Origin: a virus
Lineage: Duplodnaviria; Heunggongvirae; Uroviricota; Caudoviricetes
Reading direction: 5' to 3' (one strand)
DNA: 15,097 nt
IMG/VR virus record: IMGVR_UViG_2671180979_000021
Shown: one piece after another, positions 6,187 to 11,543 of the stretch
Layout of the letters: each line of letters starts with the position of its first letter
Numbering within the stretch: position 1 is the stretch's first letter
Notes under the pieces: model-generated
What the model saw: only the letters and a program-made list of their open reading frames with translations
Told to the model about the DNA's origin: nothing
The model's database searches: none
Made by a program: the position numbers and the translations under genes

Positions 6187-6525
6187 CTATTTCCCTGAAT
6201 TTACGACGAAACTGTTCGAGCGGACTGAAGCATTCATGCTCATAACCTTCGCGGAGGTAGATAACCCGTTGTGTTTCCGGCTCCCAACGAATGACTCTGA
6301 CGGGCACTCCGTAGTGATCTTTGAACCAGCGGTTAACTTGTCGCAAAGGACTGTCTCCTTCTGCCGGTTGAAATCACCCACAGCCCACTCTGCAAAGCTG
6401 TGGGTTACAATTTCCCTGTCACCTGGTACATTCACTGCATAGCAATATTCCACCTTCGCTTTTCCACCCGGAACAGGAAGCGCAATCAGTTGCGAGCGAC
6501 GGTAGTGTGTTGTTAAACTGTTCAT
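6187..6525 (-). CDS. Hypothetical protein, 112 aa (uncertain)
   Basis: ATG at 6523-6525 overlaps the stop of the upstream gene, with GGAG 10 nt upstream. However codon usage is unremarkable, a perfect 9-bp inverted repeat lies inside it, and a competing plus-strand ORF exists (6170..6442). Confidence 0.35.
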
Positions 6526-7091
6526 GCGTTAGTTTCTCCACAACCAGAAGCAATCGACGCCACGACGCCCGGAGCTGCACACTCGCGGGCGTCATTACTT
6601 TCTGAAATGCAAAAAATTTTGTAGACAAGTGCTGCATGCTCCTGCAGCTTCGAAATTGAGAGATACAGCTCGTCGTTAATTGCTGTCTTCTCATGCGGTT
6701 CCACTACACCGTCTTCGATTGCTGAACGAATCTGTTTTGAATAACTGCCGATCTGTTCAATGACTTCCAGCAGACGCTGGTTAATATCGGCGTTGTCCAC
6801 ATCCTCGACGTCAGGAAGAGACACAAAGACGCCATTTGCAGACTGCGCCACAGCATCAGCAATGAAGTGAGTGCCACCAGCACGCTGTAAAACCATTGCC
6901 CATCCCAGCGGGAAAATCTGATCGCCATCTGCACGAAGGCGGTTGAATAAAGCGTTTTCTGTTACATCGAGCCAGTCAGCCGCTTCAGCGTAACCACCCG
7001 GCAACGCCGCGATAGTTTTTCTGACAGCTTTCACGTACCACTCAGGCTGTTTTTCTATTTTCCAGTGATGCTTACCCACGATTAGCCTCAT
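6522..7091 (-). CDS. YdaT/CII-like early regulatory protein, 189 aa
   Basis: Second gene after the Cro-like gene in the leftward operon, the position occupied by cII or ydaT in lambdoid and Rac-type immunity regions. No clear SD upstream. Family assignment is by position and general resemblance only. Confidence 0.5.
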
Positions 7092-7122: not shown

Positions 7123-7323
7123 CTAATCTTTCGGATAGATATCCGGTCTTAAGTCAGATTTCGTAATTGCACCTGACGTGCATTGCTCAAGTTTTTTAGC
7201 CAGCACAAAACTGGCTTTTTTATAGCCATTGAAAACCAGCCGTAAGTAGCCAGGTGTTGAGCCAACTTTTCCGGCCAACTCGCCCTGCTGTTCTTTGGTT
7301 AAAGAGTCCCAATACGCTTTCAT
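7123..7323 (-). CDS. Cro/YdaS-like HTH protein, 66 aa
   Basis: ATG at 7321-7323 with GGAGGT upstream. Sequence MKAYWDSLTKEQQGELAGKVGSTPGYLRLVFNG...TKSDLRPDIYP matches the YdaS/Cro-like family pattern (C-terminal DLRPDI). Divergent from the repressor gene. The track ORF extends further upstream without support. Confidence 0.75.
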   Translation of the reverse strand: MKAYWDSLTKEQQGELAGKVGSTPGYLRLVFNGYKKASFVLAKKLEQCTSGAITKSDLRPDIYPKD

Positions 7324-7325
7324 AC

Positions 7326-7398
7326 AATATGTACCTCCGGTGTACATATTACATGATTGGAATGAACCTTCAAGATACTTGTACCTTAACGGTACAAG
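7326..7398. promoter_or_regulatory. Divergent immunity control region with two 17-bp operators of form TGTAC-N7-GTACA
   Basis: O1 at 7330-7346 (TGTACctccggtGTACA, within the palindrome aATATGTAC...GTACATATt). O2 at 7380-7396 (TGTACcttaacgGTACA, within cTTGTACC...GGTACAAg). Both lie between the Cro-like and CI-like starts. A TTGTAC-N18-TTAATT arrangement could act as a pRM-like promoter for a near-leaderless repressor mRNA. Confidence 0.6.
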
Positions 7399-7413
7399 GG
7401 TTTTAATTTCGTT

Positions 7414-8088
7414 ATGAAAACAATCCATGACATCCGGCGGTCTAACGCCAGAAAACTGAGAGATGGTGTTGGCGGGAATTCTTCCTTTGCCACTATGATT
7501 GATCGCGAGCCAACCCAGACCAGCAGGTTTATGGGAGATGGTGCTACTAAAAATATCGGTGACAGCATGGCACGACACATCGAAAAATGTTTCGACCTAC
7601 CTGTCGGATGGCTCGATCAAGAACACCAGACAACGAACATCACAAAAAAACCTGATGTTTCAATCACTAATAAACAAATCACATTAGTCCCTGTCATATC
7701 ATGGGTACAGGCCGGAGCATGGAAAGAAGTTGGATATTCTGAGGTTGATTTGAGCACAGCAGAAACTTACCCCTGCCCTGTACCCTGTGGCGAAATGACT
7801 TATATCTTGCGGGTGATTGGTGATTCAATGATTGATGAGTACCGCCCTGGAGACATGATTTTTGTTGATCCCGAAGTCCCTGCCTGCCACGGTGACGACG
7901 TTATTGCATTGATGCACGATACAGGCGAAACCACCTTCAAGCGATTGATAGAAGATGGAACACAGCGTTATCTCAAAGCATTAAACCCAAACTGGCCTGA
8001 GCCTTACATTAAGATTAACGGTAATTGCTCTATAATTGGTACAGTGATTTTCTCGGGAAAACCAAGAAGATACACAATAAAGGCCTAA
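7414..8088 (+). CDS. CI-like prophage repressor (N-terminal HTH, C-terminal S24 LexA-type peptidase)
   Basis: 224 aa. C-terminal catalytic Ser (IGDSMIDEY) and Lys (TTFKRL) spaced as in S24 peptidases. Divergent from the Cro-like gene, with operators in the intergenic region. Confidence 0.85.
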   Translation: MKTIHDIRRSNARKLRDGVGGNSSFATMIDREPTQTSRFMGDGATKNIGDSMARHIEKCFDLPVGWLDQEHQTTNITKKPDVSITNKQITLVPVISWVQAGAWKEVGYSEVDLSTAETYPCPVPCGEMTYILRVIGDSMIDEYRPGDMIFVDPEVPACHGDDVIALMHDTGETTFKRLIEDGTQRYLKALNPNWPEPYIKINGNCSIIGTVIFSGKPRRYTIKA

Positions 8089-8100
8089 TCAATATTTATG

Positions 8101-8123
8101 AACCTGCTTCGGCAGGTTTTTTT
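8101..8123 (+). terminator. Rho-independent terminator downstream of the repressor gene
   Basis: AACCTGC-ttcg-GCAGGTT followed by TTTTTTT (8117-8123), 13 nt after the repressor stop codon. Confidence 0.75.
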
Positions 8124-8127
8124 ATAC

Positions 8128-8156
8128 TTGACAATGTACCCATGAGATACATAATG
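8128..8156 (+). promoter_or_regulatory. Sigma70 promoter (pL-like) with repressor operator O3 in the spacer
   Basis: TTGACA at 8128-8133, 17-bp spacer, ATAATG at 8151-8156. The spacer contains TGTACccatgagATACA (8135-8151), a one-mismatch copy of the TGTAC-N7-GTACA operator. Confidence 0.7.
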
Positions 8157-8573
8157 TATCCAAAAGAAACATGAGGCAGGCAAGATTCAAACAAAATTTG
8201 GTTGTAACACGGCGTATGGCACATGCGTCGTTAGCGGTCTGGGGACGTTAAAGGGGACAATCCACTTCTTGCTCGGGCAAACAAACCAGGTAGCCGGAAT
8301 GTGCAAGTCAATGATGATGCTGATAAGACGCCTAACCAGCGTGGCGATCCGGTTTGACGCCTGGGAAGAGACCAGGGTGCAACGATGAGGGCATTTATAG
8401 AGCCGCGACAAAGTGTGGTGCCGTAACTGGCTAAGTGCTCTCAGCGTTGTGGTAATCCGCGAAATGGCGCGGCGGTAAGTATGGCGGGGTTACTCTTTCC
8501 CCGTTGAGGACACCGGATTGTCAGGTTGACCATACGCCTGAGTGACAACCCCACCACAACAGCCACTGCTTTG

Positions 8574-8619
8574 GCGGTACCAGTTTGTACACTTGCTTCC
8601 GGCTGGTACCGCTCTTTTT
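8574..8619 (+). terminator. Leader hairpin plus T-run (candidate attenuator or terminator) overlapping a boxA-like CGCTCTTTTTA
   Basis: GCGGTACC (8574-8581) pairs with GGTACCGC (8605-8612) around a 23-nt loop, followed by tcttttt. CGCTCTTTTTA (8610-8620) resembles the boxA consensus CGCTCTT(T)A. Confidence 0.35.
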
Positions 8620-8756
8620 ACAAAACAGAGAAGAGCATCACCGGACGACGGGCTCATAACCCAATCCATCCGGGCGGCTGCCACCGCAGGTGTTCTTCTC
8701 TGTTTTGTGGAGAAACCAACCGACCTTGCAGGGTCGATATGATGAGGAGCAGCAAA

Positions 8757-9119
8757 ATGGCTAGCGAACGCAGTACTGATGTGCAGGCATTTATCGGGGA
8801 GCTGGACGGCGGCGTATTTGAAACCAAAATCGGCGCAGTTCTCAGTGAAGTCGCTTCCGGTGTGATGAACACGAAAACCAAAGGTAAGGTCTCACTCAAC
8901 CTGGAAATCGAACCATTTGATGAGAACCGTGTGAAAATCAAACACAAACTCTCATATGTTCGCCCGACTAACCGCGGGAAAATTTCCGAAGAAGACACCA
9001 CCGAAACGCCGATGTATGTCAATCGCGGTGGTCGCCTGACTATTCTGCAGGAAGACCAGGGACAATTACTGACTCTTGCCGGTGAACCTGACGGAAAACT
9101 CCGCGCAGCAGGTCATTAA
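8757..9119 (+). CDS. YfdP-like hypothetical protein, 120 aa
   Basis: ATG at 8757 with GAGGAG 7 nt upstream. 120 aa, directly upstream of a YfdQ homologue as in CPS-53. The track ORF start at 8526 is unsupported. Confidence 0.65.
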   Translation: MASERSTDVQAFIGELDGGVFETKIGAVLSEVASGVMNTKTKGKVSLNLEIEPFDENRVKIKHKLSYVRPTNRGKISEEDTTETPMYVNRGGRLTILQEDQGQLLTLAGEPDGKLRAAGH

Positions 9120-10137: not shown

Positions 10138-10674
10138 ATGTCATTTATTAAAACTTTTTCCGGGAAGCATTTTTATTATGACAAGATAAATAAAGACGAC
10201 ATCGTGATTAACGATATCGCGGTTTCCCTTTCAAATATCTGTCGCTTTGCAGGACATCTTTCACACTTCTACAGTGTCGCCCAGCATGCGGTGCTTTGCC
10301 GCCAGCTGGTGCCGCAGGAATTTGCTTTTGAAGCGTTAATGCATGATGCAACAGAAGCGTATTGCCAGGACATCCCCGCACCACTGAAACGACTTCTTCC
10401 TGACTATAAACGGATGGAGGAAAAAATAGACGCCGTAATCCGTGAGAAATACGGGTTACCTCCTGTTATGAGCACGCCAGTGAAATATGCCGATCTCATC
10501 ATGCTGGCAACCGAACGCCGCGATCTCGGACTTGATGATGGCTCTTTCTGGCCTGTATTGGAAGGTATCCCGGCAACAGAGATGTTCAAAGTGATTCCAC
10601 TGGCACCGGGCCATGCCTACGGGATGTTTATGGAACGCTTCAACGAGTTATCGGAATTACGCAAATGTGCATAA
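10138..10674 (+). CDS. yfdR: HD-domain 5'-deoxynucleotidase YfdR-like, 178 aa
   Basis: HD motif (ALMHDATEAY) with the earlier His (AQHAV). ATG at 10138 preceded by GGAGA. Length equals YfdR (178 aa). The track ORF begins earlier at 10075. Confidence 0.8.
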   Translation: MSFIKTFSGKHFYYDKINKDDIVINDIAVSLSNICRFAGHLSHFYSVAQHAVLCRQLVPQEFAFEALMHDATEAYCQDIPAPLKRLLPDYKRMEEKIDAVIREKYGLPPVMSTPVKYADLIMLATERRDLGLDDGSFWPVLEGIPATEMFKVIPLAPGHAYGMFMERFNELSELRKCA

Positions 10675-11543
10675 CTCATGTAGTTAGTTTTTCTGGCGGG
10701 AGAACATCTGCATATCTTGTTCACCTGATGGAAGAACAAAGAAAGGCTGGCAATAACGTCTGCTACATCTTTATGGATACCGGTTGCGAACATCCGCTGA
10801 CATACCGCTTTATTCGGGAGGTTGTGAAGTTCTGGGGCATACCGCTAACTGTGTTGCAGGTCGATATAAATCCAGAGCTTGGGCAGCCAAATGGTTATAC
10901 GGAATGGGAACCAAAGGATATTCAGACGCGAATGCCGGTGCTAAAACCGTTTATGGACATGGTTAAAAAGTACGGTACGCCATACATCGGCGGCGCATTC
11001 TGTACTGACAGGCTAAAACTCACCCCTTTCACGAAATATTGAGATGACCATTTTGGGCGAGGGAATTACATCACATGGCTGGGTATTCGTGCAGACGAAC
11101 CCCGCAGGCTGAAACCGAAACCGGGCGTCCGGTATCTCGCCGAACTGTCAGATTTTGATAAGTCGGATGTTATCCGGTGGTGGCGTAAACAGCCGTTCGA
11201 TTTACTTATCCCTGAGCACCTCGGGAACTGTGTTTTCTGCATCAAAAAGTCAACGCAAAAGCTGGGGCTTGCATGTAAGGACGAACCTGGCCTGATGCGG
11301 GTTTTTAATGAACTGGTTACAGGCCAACACGTCAGGGACGGTCATCGCAGAACAGGTAAAGACGTTATGTACCGTGGTCATCTGAGTCTTGAAGGGATTG
11401 CCAGAATGTATGCCGACAGCGACTACTGGAATTTGTATCAGGCGATGGTGCAGGCCGGGCGATTCGATACCGGCTCGTGTTCAGAGTCATGTGAAATCTG
11501 GGGTGATCAACTGGAGTTGAAATTCGAAGAGGTAGTTACATGA
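10665..11543 (+). pseudogene. PAPS reductase-like (PP-loop) gene interrupted by a single in-frame TGA at 11040-11042
   Basis: N-terminal PP-loop motif SFSGGRTS. The same frame stays open from 10665 to 11543 apart from the one TGA (FTKY*DDHFGRGNYITWLGIRADEP...). This corresponds to the split yfdS/yfdT pair position in CPS-53. Confidence 0.55.

Follow-up and report, generated by a model that had tools for sequence, protein, structure and literature searches.

The window analyzed here, the whole 15,097-nucleotide stretch of phage DNA, contains two divergent regulatory genes separated by a 90-bp gap: a cro-like gene on the minus strand (7123-7323; 66 aa, CroE/YmfT type), which is the first gene of the pR operon, and a cI-like repressor gene on the plus strand (7414-8088; 224 aa, CohE/YmfK type). 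The latter is followed by an intrinsic terminator (8100-8125, plus strand), with a hairpin and T-run conserved in most homologous loci, and a pL-like promoter (8128-8155, plus strand) lies directly 3' of it. Beyond this promoter extends the untranslated leader of the pL operon (8162-8756, plus strand), which is a mosaic of RNA modules, and then the first protein gene of the operon (8757-9119, plus strand), encoding a YfdP-like product (RefSeq name yfdP) and preceded by a GAGGAG ribosome-binding site at 8744-8749. The cro-like product was assigned to PHROG 35 (transcriptional repressor) and showed weak matches to the Pfam HTH_3/YdaS models as well as to the solved phage Cro structures 8co2/8c7k.

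The C-terminus of the repressor matched Pfam Peptidase_S24 (PF00717, 1.5e-26), and its best PDB match, both in sequence and in fold, was the C-terminal domain of lambda cI. The motifs VQA100|G101AW, GDS138M and TFK176 are conserved, providing a Ser138/Lys176 dyad and an Ala-Gly site in the linker; with these features the protein corresponds to an autocleaving S24 repressor of the LexA/lambda cI type, for which cleavage is predicted. In the N-terminal domain no Pfam HTH model was matched at E <= 0.01, and a DNA-binding role of this part of the protein is suggested by its predicted four-helix fold (helices 4-19, 22-28, 33-40, and 50-59 in the AlphaFold model, pLDDT 82-90) together with a weak match to Rep of the Salmonella phage SPC32H (5D50), the closest solved relative of this domain (phmmer E 0.0018, residues 1-76; Foldseek 35% identity and rmsd 2.3 A over 78 columns). 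Unlike the repressor described here with its lambda-type S24 domain, SPC32H Rep has another C-terminal domain, and its inactivation is brought about by an antirepressor.

The motif TGTACNNNNNNNGTACA was matched with at most one mismatch at three positions of the window and nowhere else in it: OR-a (7330-7346, TGTACCTCCGGTGTACA) and OR-b (7380-7396, TGTACCTTAACGGTACA), both without mismatches, and OL1 (8135-8151, TGTACCCATGAGATACA), with one. A sequence-only reading of this DNA had placed three copies at these same coordinates, two perfect ones between the divergent genes and a third, with one mismatch, in the spacer of the downstream promoter, and the scan bears this out, as the perfect copies lie in the 90-bp gap and OL1 fills the space between the TTGACA and CATAAT of the pL-like promoter. 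The number of copies is also far from that expected by chance: shuffled windows contained on average 0.24 matches and none of 200 shuffles reached three, and 294 kb of control DNA contained next to no copies (no exact and two one-mismatch matches), compared to 39 exact and 91 one-mismatch matches in 196 kb around close homologs. When three mismatches were tolerated, 48 matches were found in the window against 42 expected, i.e., without window-wide enrichment, and for this reason two weaker sites, OR-mid (7363-7379, TGAACCTTCAAGATACT) and OL2 (8155-8171, TGTATCCAAAAGAAACA), rest on comparative evidence.

The comparison set comprised 29 loci from at least 15 genera, ranging from Escherichia to Halomonadaceae, with repressors 43-100% identical. 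In these loci the motif is found at fixed offsets, at -84/-85 and at -34 to -38 from the repressor ATG, with the third position about 50 nt beyond the repressor stop, and it is not found where the S24 repressor is more distant. The half-sites contain 1.3-2.0 bits of information and the center 0.2-0.6 bits. Because variation is free in the central 5 bp and the half-sites do not change, the operator consensus deduced from the alignment is TGTACC-N5-GGTACA, a 17-bp dyad with 6-bp half-sites; the repeat initially described as TGTAC-N7-GTACA is real, and its conserved half-site is 6 bp long. The mismatch in OL1 (GATACA) is a variant found at all three positions in other genera. Among the near-identical Ayreon, cdtI, Stx2c_2409 and e14 loci, operator substitutions are confined to the center or to positions 12-13, with which the right half-site begins. 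In OR-a the center "CTCC" is kept across loci because it forms part of the cro ribosome-binding site.

OR-a encloses CCTCC (7334-7338), which on the minus strand is the GGAGG Shine-Dalgarno sequence of the cro-like gene (start codon ATG, 7323-7321), in agreement with the overlap with the cro-like ribosome-binding site proposed earlier, and it also covers the predicted start site of pR. This promoter (7346-7373, minus strand), whose position and start we infer from the sequence, would consist of a -35 TTGAAG (7373->7368), a 16-nt spacer and a -10 TAATAT (7351->7346), hexamers that are kept in the 29 loci as TTGnnG and TAATAT/CATAAT/TATAAT. OR-mid is situated over the pR -35 and abuts OR-b, with 43 bp from its center to the downstream cI ATG. 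In most loci the site has the sequence TGAACC-N5-GGTACT, its left half is TGTACC in Erwinia, Proteus and Halomonadaceae, and in Rosenbergiella it becomes AGTTCC-N5-GGAACT. Part of this conservation is owed to the promoter, since OR-mid overlaps the pR -35, and the dyad is preserved beyond the needs of that hexamer.

OR-b overlaps the -35 and spacer of a candidate pRM (7379-7413, plus strand) composed of TTGTAC (7379-7384), 17 nt, the -10 TTTAAT (7402-7407), 6 nt, and the ATG. The cI start is without a Shine-Dalgarno sequence in 29 of 30 loci and the arrangement AAT-N6/7-ATG is kept, which supports the earlier claim that this gene has no clear ribosome-binding site. The leaderless cI mRNA proposed along with it, which would originate at the candidate pRM, is a tentative call because no consistent pRM emerged from an automated search in which the -10 had to have A at position 2; in E. 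coli the candidate -10, TTTAAT, is devoid of the crucial -11 A.

On the other side of the repressor gene, the pL-like promoter combines TTGACA (8128-8133), a 16-nt spacer and CATAAT (8150-8155), with 11 of 12 matches to the consensus, and its TTGACAATGTACC...GGTACATAAT is kept in 25 enterobacterial loci. OL2 is located 20 bp past OL1, over the predicted pL start, as a 20-bp direct repeat (D3). In most loci this site reads TGTACC-N5-GnAACA at +20 from OL1, and it departs from the 12 consensus positions by no more than one mismatch in Trabulsiella (L019) and Erwinia (L024) and by two in Edwardsiella (L023). The sequence-only reading had therefore counted the strong sites correctly and missed the two weaker conserved ones (7363-7379 and 8155-8171), which bring the total to five.

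The repressor is identical to YmfK/CohE of the e14 element of E. coli K-12 at 223 of 224 residues, and the cro-like product to YmfT/CroE at 65 of 66. The OR region of e14 differs by one base, located outside the three operator dyads, so that OR-a and OR-b are identical, and its OL1 and OL2 are of the same type, OL1 differing only in the center; ymfL and ymfM follow cro in e14 as in the window. The proposal that the operators predict the immunity specificity of this prophage can thus be made precise: judging from sequence, the specificity matches that of e14 (CohE/CroE), the repressor and Cro each differing by a single residue. The window is not e14 itself, as ymfJ is replaced, on the right-hand side of OL2, by a leader of the cdtI/SfV/Stx2c type and yfdP-like genes, and an intact O-like replication gene is present. 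The immunity region is common to phages Ayreon and cdtI and to Stx2c phages. In phage mEp460 the leader is the same from about 8181 onward and is combined with another repressor and with TTGC-N7-GCAA operators in both regions, and this module swap indicates that the operators travel with the repressor. The mEpimmI phage group was considered as a match and discarded, the paper on that group describing another repressor family. Sites for the e14 repressor and Cro were reportedly predicted in 2004 by Mehta, Casjens and Krishnaswamy (BMC Microbiol) by comparison with SfV. A literature search found no binding, footprint, ChIP or reporter study of CohE/YmfK, nor of the TGTACC/GGTACA motif.

Altogether, this evidence points, with a probability of about 0.9, to an e14-type lambdoid immunity switch in which the repressor, and probably also Cro, binds five dyads at pR/pRM and pL. 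It is an ordinary lambda-style switch of the well-known e14 family, the architecture of which is already known, and four features of such switches are present: divergent genes, multiple dyads over both promoters, the same dyads at pL, and co-variation of operators and repressor. That one repressor controls both the pR/pRM region and pL, as was suggested earlier, is supported by the presence of sites on the promoters at both sides of cI, by their conservation and by their co-inheritance with the repressor. According to the model, the CohE/YmfK-type repressor, and probably the Cro-like protein, would bind TGTACC-N5-GGTACA as dimers. Occupancy of OR-a would cover the cro ribosome-binding site together with the start of pR, the weak OR-mid would cover the pR -35 at an OR2-like position, and the perfect OR-b would overlap the candidate maintenance promoter in its -35 and spacer, making autorepression or shut-off by Cro possible. 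At pL, OL1 would fill the spacer and the weak OL2 would cover the start site; as a consequence of this placement, both outward early promoters would be blocked in the lysogen. DNA damage would then lead to RecA-stimulated self-cleavage of the repressor at Ala100-Gly101, with Ser138/Lys176 as catalytic residues, releasing pR (cro-ymfL-ymfM-replication genes) and pL (the long RNA leader followed by the yfdP-like genes). The e14 genes on both sides of cohE belong to one set co-expressed with the SOS genes sulA and recN, whose activity was seen in fur mutants and upon exposure to H2O2 (PMC10602906; gene list PMC12132413), and the e14 division inhibitor was reported to be SOS-inducible and not under LexA (bioRxiv 10.1101/2020.11.19.390815).

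As in lambda, cI and cro are divergent, 17-bp dyads lie over pR as well as over the maintenance promoter, and pL, which is located beyond cI and reads in the same orientation, has its own group of operators. Further points in common are an S24 repressor carrying an Ala-Gly cleavage site, a weak site in the middle, some 42-43 bp before the start of cI, and, possibly, a leaderless cI mRNA. The locus differs from lambda in the operator sequence, in having 3+2 instead of 3+3 sites, with OR-mid and OR-b abutting and a perfect site on the maintenance-promoter side, in the distance between OL and OR (about 0.75 kb, with no rex genes between them), in being without an N gene and having a CII of the P2/186 CP76 type, and in a repressor N-terminal domain not recognized by Pfam HTH models. 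Some of these differences weigh against the model, among them the N-terminal domain without a Pfam HTH match, as does the missing -11 A of the candidate pRM. The 17 bp from center to center between OR-mid and OR-b is unusual for cooperative lambda-type pairs and counts against any cooperativity presumed for them, and the lambda order of occupancy may not apply because a perfect site is found on the maintenance promoter and not at the OR1-like position only.

As an alternative, a simpler 2+1 layout like that of the sequence-only reading can be envisaged, in which only the three strong dyads are operators and the other two sites are conserved through promoter overlap. Both weak sites have three mismatches in the window, where such matches occur at the chance rate, OR-mid contains the pR -35, and OL2 is absent in Proteus, Rosenbergiella and Halomonadaceae. 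Nevertheless, both half-sites of OR-mid are kept outside the -35 hexamer, turning into the full TGTACC in several genera, and Rosenbergiella has AGTTCC/GGAACT as a matched dyad. At OL2 the left half is a perfect TGTACC, placed at exactly +20, in about 20 loci, and two loci have at most one mismatch in 12. The 2+1 layout is considered unlikely.

Far less probable is that the palindromes are RNA hairpins serving as terminators or attenuators. This explanation draws on the terminator scan, which flagged 7378-7398 (CTTGTACC TTAAC GGTACAAG + GGTTTTAATT) as a structure that could stop transcription into cI from the cro side, but the T-run of this hairpin is not conserved, the half-sites are invariant in 29 loci without the covariation that a mere hairpin would allow, the same dyad occurs inside promoter spacers and around a ribosome-binding site, where a terminator would be senseless, and the dyads are exchanged together with the repressor. 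Several restriction-modification systems recognize palindromes that contain GTAC, and the sites could in principle represent a restriction/methylation motif (GTAC/GGTACC-like) or be bound by a host factor; this is the least probable of the readings, given that the motif is found only beside this repressor family, at fixed offsets and in hosts from Enterobacterales to Halomonadaceae, and is missing near more distant S24 repressors. The LexA box (CTGT-N8-ACAG) was discarded on the grounds that its spacing and sequence do not fit the operators, and termination immunity of the P4/SfV type or of the C4 type of P4/P1, in which a small RNA acts on the leader, on the grounds that there was no Rfam C4 match even at E <= 10 and there were no strong internal complementary repeats.

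Downstream of OL2, the leader contains no plus-strand ORF above 39 aa and its predicted folding is markedly stable (MFE z = -4.56). Homology with other phages begins at about 8181, and the final ~190 nt are common to SfIV and, to a slightly lesser extent, SfII. Within it, a conserved, covarying and unannotated structured RNA candidate (8201-8453, plus strand) was detected in at least 120 viral contigs, with compensatory changes in 12 of 40 pairs and invariant loops. It is common to lambdoid, P1-like and epsilon15-like phages, in which it directly adjoins tRNA genes or DicF-like sRNAs. Rfam was searched, at permissive as well as gathering thresholds, with the window, its leader and six homologous loci, and only tRNAs and one DicF (in a Qin-type locus) were returned, with no family matching 8201-8453; ARAGORN found no tRNA in the window. 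The put RNA of HK022 was examined as a possible identity of the leader element, and an nhmmer comparison with the pL/pR region of HK022 gave no similarity, a result that excludes sequence homology only. We tentatively propose, at somewhat below even odds, that 8201-8453 represents a new phage RNA family made at the very start of induction. It could be a stable RNA produced by processing, or else an antitermination element acting in cis in phages of a group without N; the latter fits with the presence of an intrinsic terminator between the element and the first gene.

This terminator (GCGGTACCAG...CTGGTACCGC + TCTTTTT) ends a DicF-related segment (8568-8620, plus strand) that aligns with the Qin-type locus where Rfam places DicF and forms a hairpin in the MFE fold. 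In Qin-type prophages (dicA/dicC, dicB operon) the ydfC-dicF stretch of the early-left operon, which is under repressor control, is homologous to 8446-8620 of the leader. Qin has another repressor and other operators; the DicF seed is missing here and the terminator hairpin differs, and the Rfam DicF model found no match in the leader.

The general understanding of phage switches is unchanged by these results, which describe a textbook architecture in a known element. What they provide are base-resolution sites for the control of both early operons by an e14-type repressor, a control that in K-12 would include ymfM, the SOS-inducible and LexA-independent division inhibitor. For the "YmfT iModulon", cleavage of CohE acting at OR/OL would be a simpler reading than an unknown oxidative-stress response of YmfT. 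It is also predicted that e14 shares a single immunity group with Ayreon, cdtI and the Stx2c phages, in which case laboratory strains carrying e14 would be expected to resist lysogenization or plating by Stx2c phages.

The motif TGTAC-N7-GTACA occurs three times in the window, as perfect copies at 7330-7346 (OR-a) and 7380-7396 (OR-b) and with one mismatch at 8135-8151 (OL1), exactly as the sequence-only reading had listed them, and a pattern search of the 15,097 bases detected no further match at ≤1 mismatch. For the enrichment count suggested there, dinucleotide-preserving shuffles of the window held a mean of 0.24 matches, and none of 200 contained three. OR-a and OR-b are predicted operators located between a cro-like gene (7123-7323, minus strand) and a cI-like repressor gene (7414-8088, plus strand). 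OR-a encloses CCTCC (7334-7338); read on the minus strand this is GGAGG, the ribosome-binding site of the gene starting at 7323, which bears out the proposed overlap with this signal. OL1 was rightly placed in the spacer of the downstream promoter, TTGACA (8128-8133)/CATAAT (8150-8155), a promoter-like site that matches at 11 of 12 positions and lies directly 3' of a hairpin-plus-T terminator (8100-8119).

Twenty-five repressor homologues were aligned and used to fetch 79 genomic loci. The motif was present at ≤1 mismatch and at fixed offsets in all 29 loci with a repressor 43-100% identical to that of the window (Escherichia, Pseudocitrobacter, Klebsiella, Leclercia, Pantoea, Serratia, Rahnella, Edwardsiella, Erwinia, Proteus, Rosenbergiella, Symbiopectobacterium, Salinicola, Halomonas, and others), two upstream of the repressor ATG (-84 to -88 and -34 to -38) and a third some 50 nt beyond the stop codon. 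In Halomonadaceae (Salinicola, Halomonas, and Phytohalomonas; L033-L036) the third, pL-type site is found 0.9-1.6 kb past the stop instead of 50 nt, implying that further genes lie between repressor and pL, as rexAB does in lambda. The aligned sites give the consensus TGTACC-N5-GGTACA, with 1.3-2.0 bits at the six outer positions of each side and 0.2-0.6 bits over the central 5 bp of OR-b and OL1; the center of OR-a starts with an invariant CTCC because this is the cro ribosome-binding site. GATACA, the "mismatch" of the third site, is a variant that other genera use at each of the three sites, and among near-identical E. coli phages operator changes are confined to the center or to positions 12-13, at the start of the right half-site. 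Scored on the 12-position consensus, 294 kb of control DNA from loci around more distant S24 repressors contained no exact and 2 one-mismatch matches vs 39 exact and 91 one-mismatch matches in 196 kb around close homologues.

The count of three sites holds for the strong dyads and falls short for the total, as two weaker conserved sites were detected. OR-mid (7363-7379, TGAACCTTCAAGATACT) lies between OR-a and OR-b, abuts the latter and contains the -35 element of the predicted cro promoter pR; it is kept as TGAACC-N5-GGTACT, begins TGTACC in Erwinia, Proteus, and Halomonadaceae, and is a matched dyad, AGTTCC-N5-GGAACT, in Rosenbergiella. OL2 (8155-8171, TGTATCCAAAAGAAACA in the window) covers the expected pL start and belongs to a 20-bp repeat in which 8133-8152 recurs at 8153-8172. 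In most loci it reads TGTACC-N5-GnAACA, exactly 20 positions beyond OL1, with ≤1 mismatch over the 12 consensus positions in Trabulsiella (L019) and Erwinia (L024) and 2 in Edwardsiella (L023). Three-mismatch matches occur in the window at the chance rate (48 vs 42 expected), so that the case for OR-mid and OL2 is one of positional conservation only.

Phage mEp460 has its leader in common with the window from about 8181 onward; its S24 repressor and its Cro are both different, and TTGC-N7-GCAA dyads lie between the two genes and at the promoter after the repressor gene. This swap indicates that the dyads are part of the repressor module, and that the module boundary falls immediately after 8171. 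The mosaic junction, where the immunity module ends on the right, maps to about 8177-8185 in the window (L085:2480-2520 in mEp460); from just after OL2 the sequence is homologous to phages of other immunity types (mEp460, 1720a-02, CPS-53-like prophages).

The approximately 600 nt from pL to the first gene (8757, yfdP-like) have no plus-strand ORF longer than 39 codons and fold much more stably than shuffled versions (z = -4.56), and sequence comparison describes this leader as a mosaic. Over 8446-8565 it matches the ydfC-dicF spacer of Qin-type prophages at ~92% identity, and the homologue of 8446-8620 in that region is found in most E. coli genomes. The following 8568-8620 (plus strand) aligns with DicF, without the DicF 5' seed, and the Rfam DicF model does not match 8446-8620; the 3' end of the DicF-aligned segment forms its own terminator hairpin, GCGGTACCAG...CTGGTACCGC plus TCTTTTT, unlike that of DicF, which places an intrinsic terminator between pL and the first gene. 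A long near-perfect hairpin (8620-8708, plus strand; 25-nt arms, 84% complementary, 39-nt loop) is located just upstream of the ribosome-binding site of the first pL gene, within ~190 nt at the leader 3' end that are common to SfIV and in part to SfII and ST64B.

The leader also contains an unannotated, conserved structured RNA (8201-8453, plus strand), detected as well in P1 (L004:2506-2688), phiV10 (L005:2496-2745), and loci L087-L092 and L095-L214. The P1 stretch, 78-82% identical, starts right after tRNA-Ile and precedes ban; that of phiV10 is similarly close and ends right at a tRNA gene. An HMM matched the element in Uetakeviruses, Punaviruses, and lambdoids; the viral contigs carrying it are lambdoid, P1-like, and epsilon15-like phages, often with a directly adjoining tRNA gene, and its invariant 19-mer occurs in at least 120 IMG/VR contigs, with tRNA-Arg(UCU) directly 3' in 25. 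An RNAalifold core from 37 non-redundant sequences has 40 pairs, 94% canonical vs 30-46% with partners slid, and compensatory changes in 12 of them; the hairpins vary and the loops AUGGCACAU, GGUAGCCGGAAUGUGCAAG, GGUGUGAC, and GGAAGAG are invariant. A search of the element against Rfam 15, in the window and in six homologous loci, gave no matching family, and HK022 put was discarded as its sequence homologue, no similarity to the put region being found. In the Klebsiella phage BUCT711 (Uetakevirus; L087:935-984) the structured RNA is followed by tRNA-Arg and a weak DicF-like match (20 bits, E 0.8), an order parallel to the window's and suggestive of a mobile RNA cassette.

The repressor (224 residues; Peptidase_S24, Pfam E 1.5e-26; PHROG 4, "transcriptional repressor") matches lambda cI in the sequence of its C-terminal domain (1f39, 3bdn) and in the fold of its AlphaFold model (mean pLDDT 76; 2ho0, E 2.4e-8; 3bdn_A, E 2.9e-8). 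Homologues keep VQA100-G101AW, a cleavage context of the lambda type, as well as Ser138 in GDSM and Lys176 in TFKRL. Its N-terminal 70 residues, recognized by no Pfam HTH model, are modeled as four helices (pLDDT 82-90), and their closest solved relative is Rep of the Salmonella phage SPC32H (5d50). The cro-like gene encodes a 66-residue HTH protein (PHROG 35) and is followed by genes for a CII-like protein of the CP76 type and an O-like replication protein.

Phages Ayreon, 2H10, and cdtI, along with a number of Stx2c-converting phages, are 97-98% identical to the region; Ayreon, cdtI, and Stx2c_2409 have an identical Cro and a repressor that departs from the window's by one or two changes. 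RefSeq E. coli genomes name the two genes ymfK and ymfT, as the repressor and Cro genes of prophage e14 of K-12 are called. Repressor and Cro are each one residue apart from their e14 counterparts (T221K vs YmfK/CohE in the repressor), so the immunity specificity expected to be readable from the switch is of the e14 type. These near-identical proteins, together with ymfL and ymfM homologues after cro, assign e14 immunity to the prophage, which by sequence is a cdtI/Stx2c-type lambdoid. The homologues of ymfL (6522-7091, minus strand; 91.5% identical, CP76/CII-like) and ymfM (6187-6525, minus strand; 99% identical) lie directly downstream of cro and thus under pR and its operators. Elsewhere, a 125-residue ORF (10665-11042, plus strand) matches PAPS-reductase-like phage proteins in their N-terminal part only; its Ayreon and cdtI homologue carries the label "valyl-tRNA synthetase", apparently in error.

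The predicted pR (minus strand; TTGAAG 7373-7368, TAATAT 7351-7346, 16-nt spacer) has conserved hexamers (TTGnnG and TAATAT/CATAAT/TATAAT) and would start at about 7339-7341, within OR-a, leaving a cro leader of ~18 nt. A candidate maintenance promoter pRM (plus strand; TTGTAC 7379-7384, 17 nt, TTTAAT 7402-7407) would start at the A of the cI ATG. This ATG has no upstream Shine-Dalgarno core in 29 of 30 loci, and AAT occurs 6-7 nt upstream of it in all loci compared. An A at -11 is near-universal in sigma-70 promoters, and the E. coli pRM hexamer TTTAAT has none; a leaderless cI mRNA is plausible but not established.

In the proposed mechanism, repressor dimers at OR-a and OR-mid would occlude pR, OR-b, over the maintenance promoter, could mediate autorepression or shut-off by Cro, and OL1 and OL2, two helical turns apart, would occlude pL; SOS-induced self-cleavage would then release both promoters. 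OR-mid is centered 43 bp upstream of the cI ATG, which corresponds to the place of lambda OR2, where bound cI activates pRM. A literature search found no binding or footprint data for the repressor. In K-12, e14 genes on either side of cohE (intE, xisE, ymfH, and ymfJ; ymfT, ymfL, ymfM, ymfN, and further genes) form a co-expressed set with sulA and recN (PMC10602906; gene list PMC12132413), with peak activity in fur mutants and under H2O2 (PMC10602906), independent support for a mechanism in which both promoters are released. The e14 division inhibitor (ymfM) is SOS-inducible, not LexA-controlled, and thought to be under CohE (bioRxiv 10.1101/2020.11.19.390815).

The style of the switch is common to lambda and the window, which differs in its own operator sequence and 3+2 site layout. 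The switch itself is that of e14, a known element whose repressor and Cro binding sites were reportedly predicted by Mehta, Casjens and Krishnaswamy (BMC Microbiol 2004) via comparison with SfV. Added here are the base-level consensus, two extra sites, conservation across genera, and the mEp460 swap.
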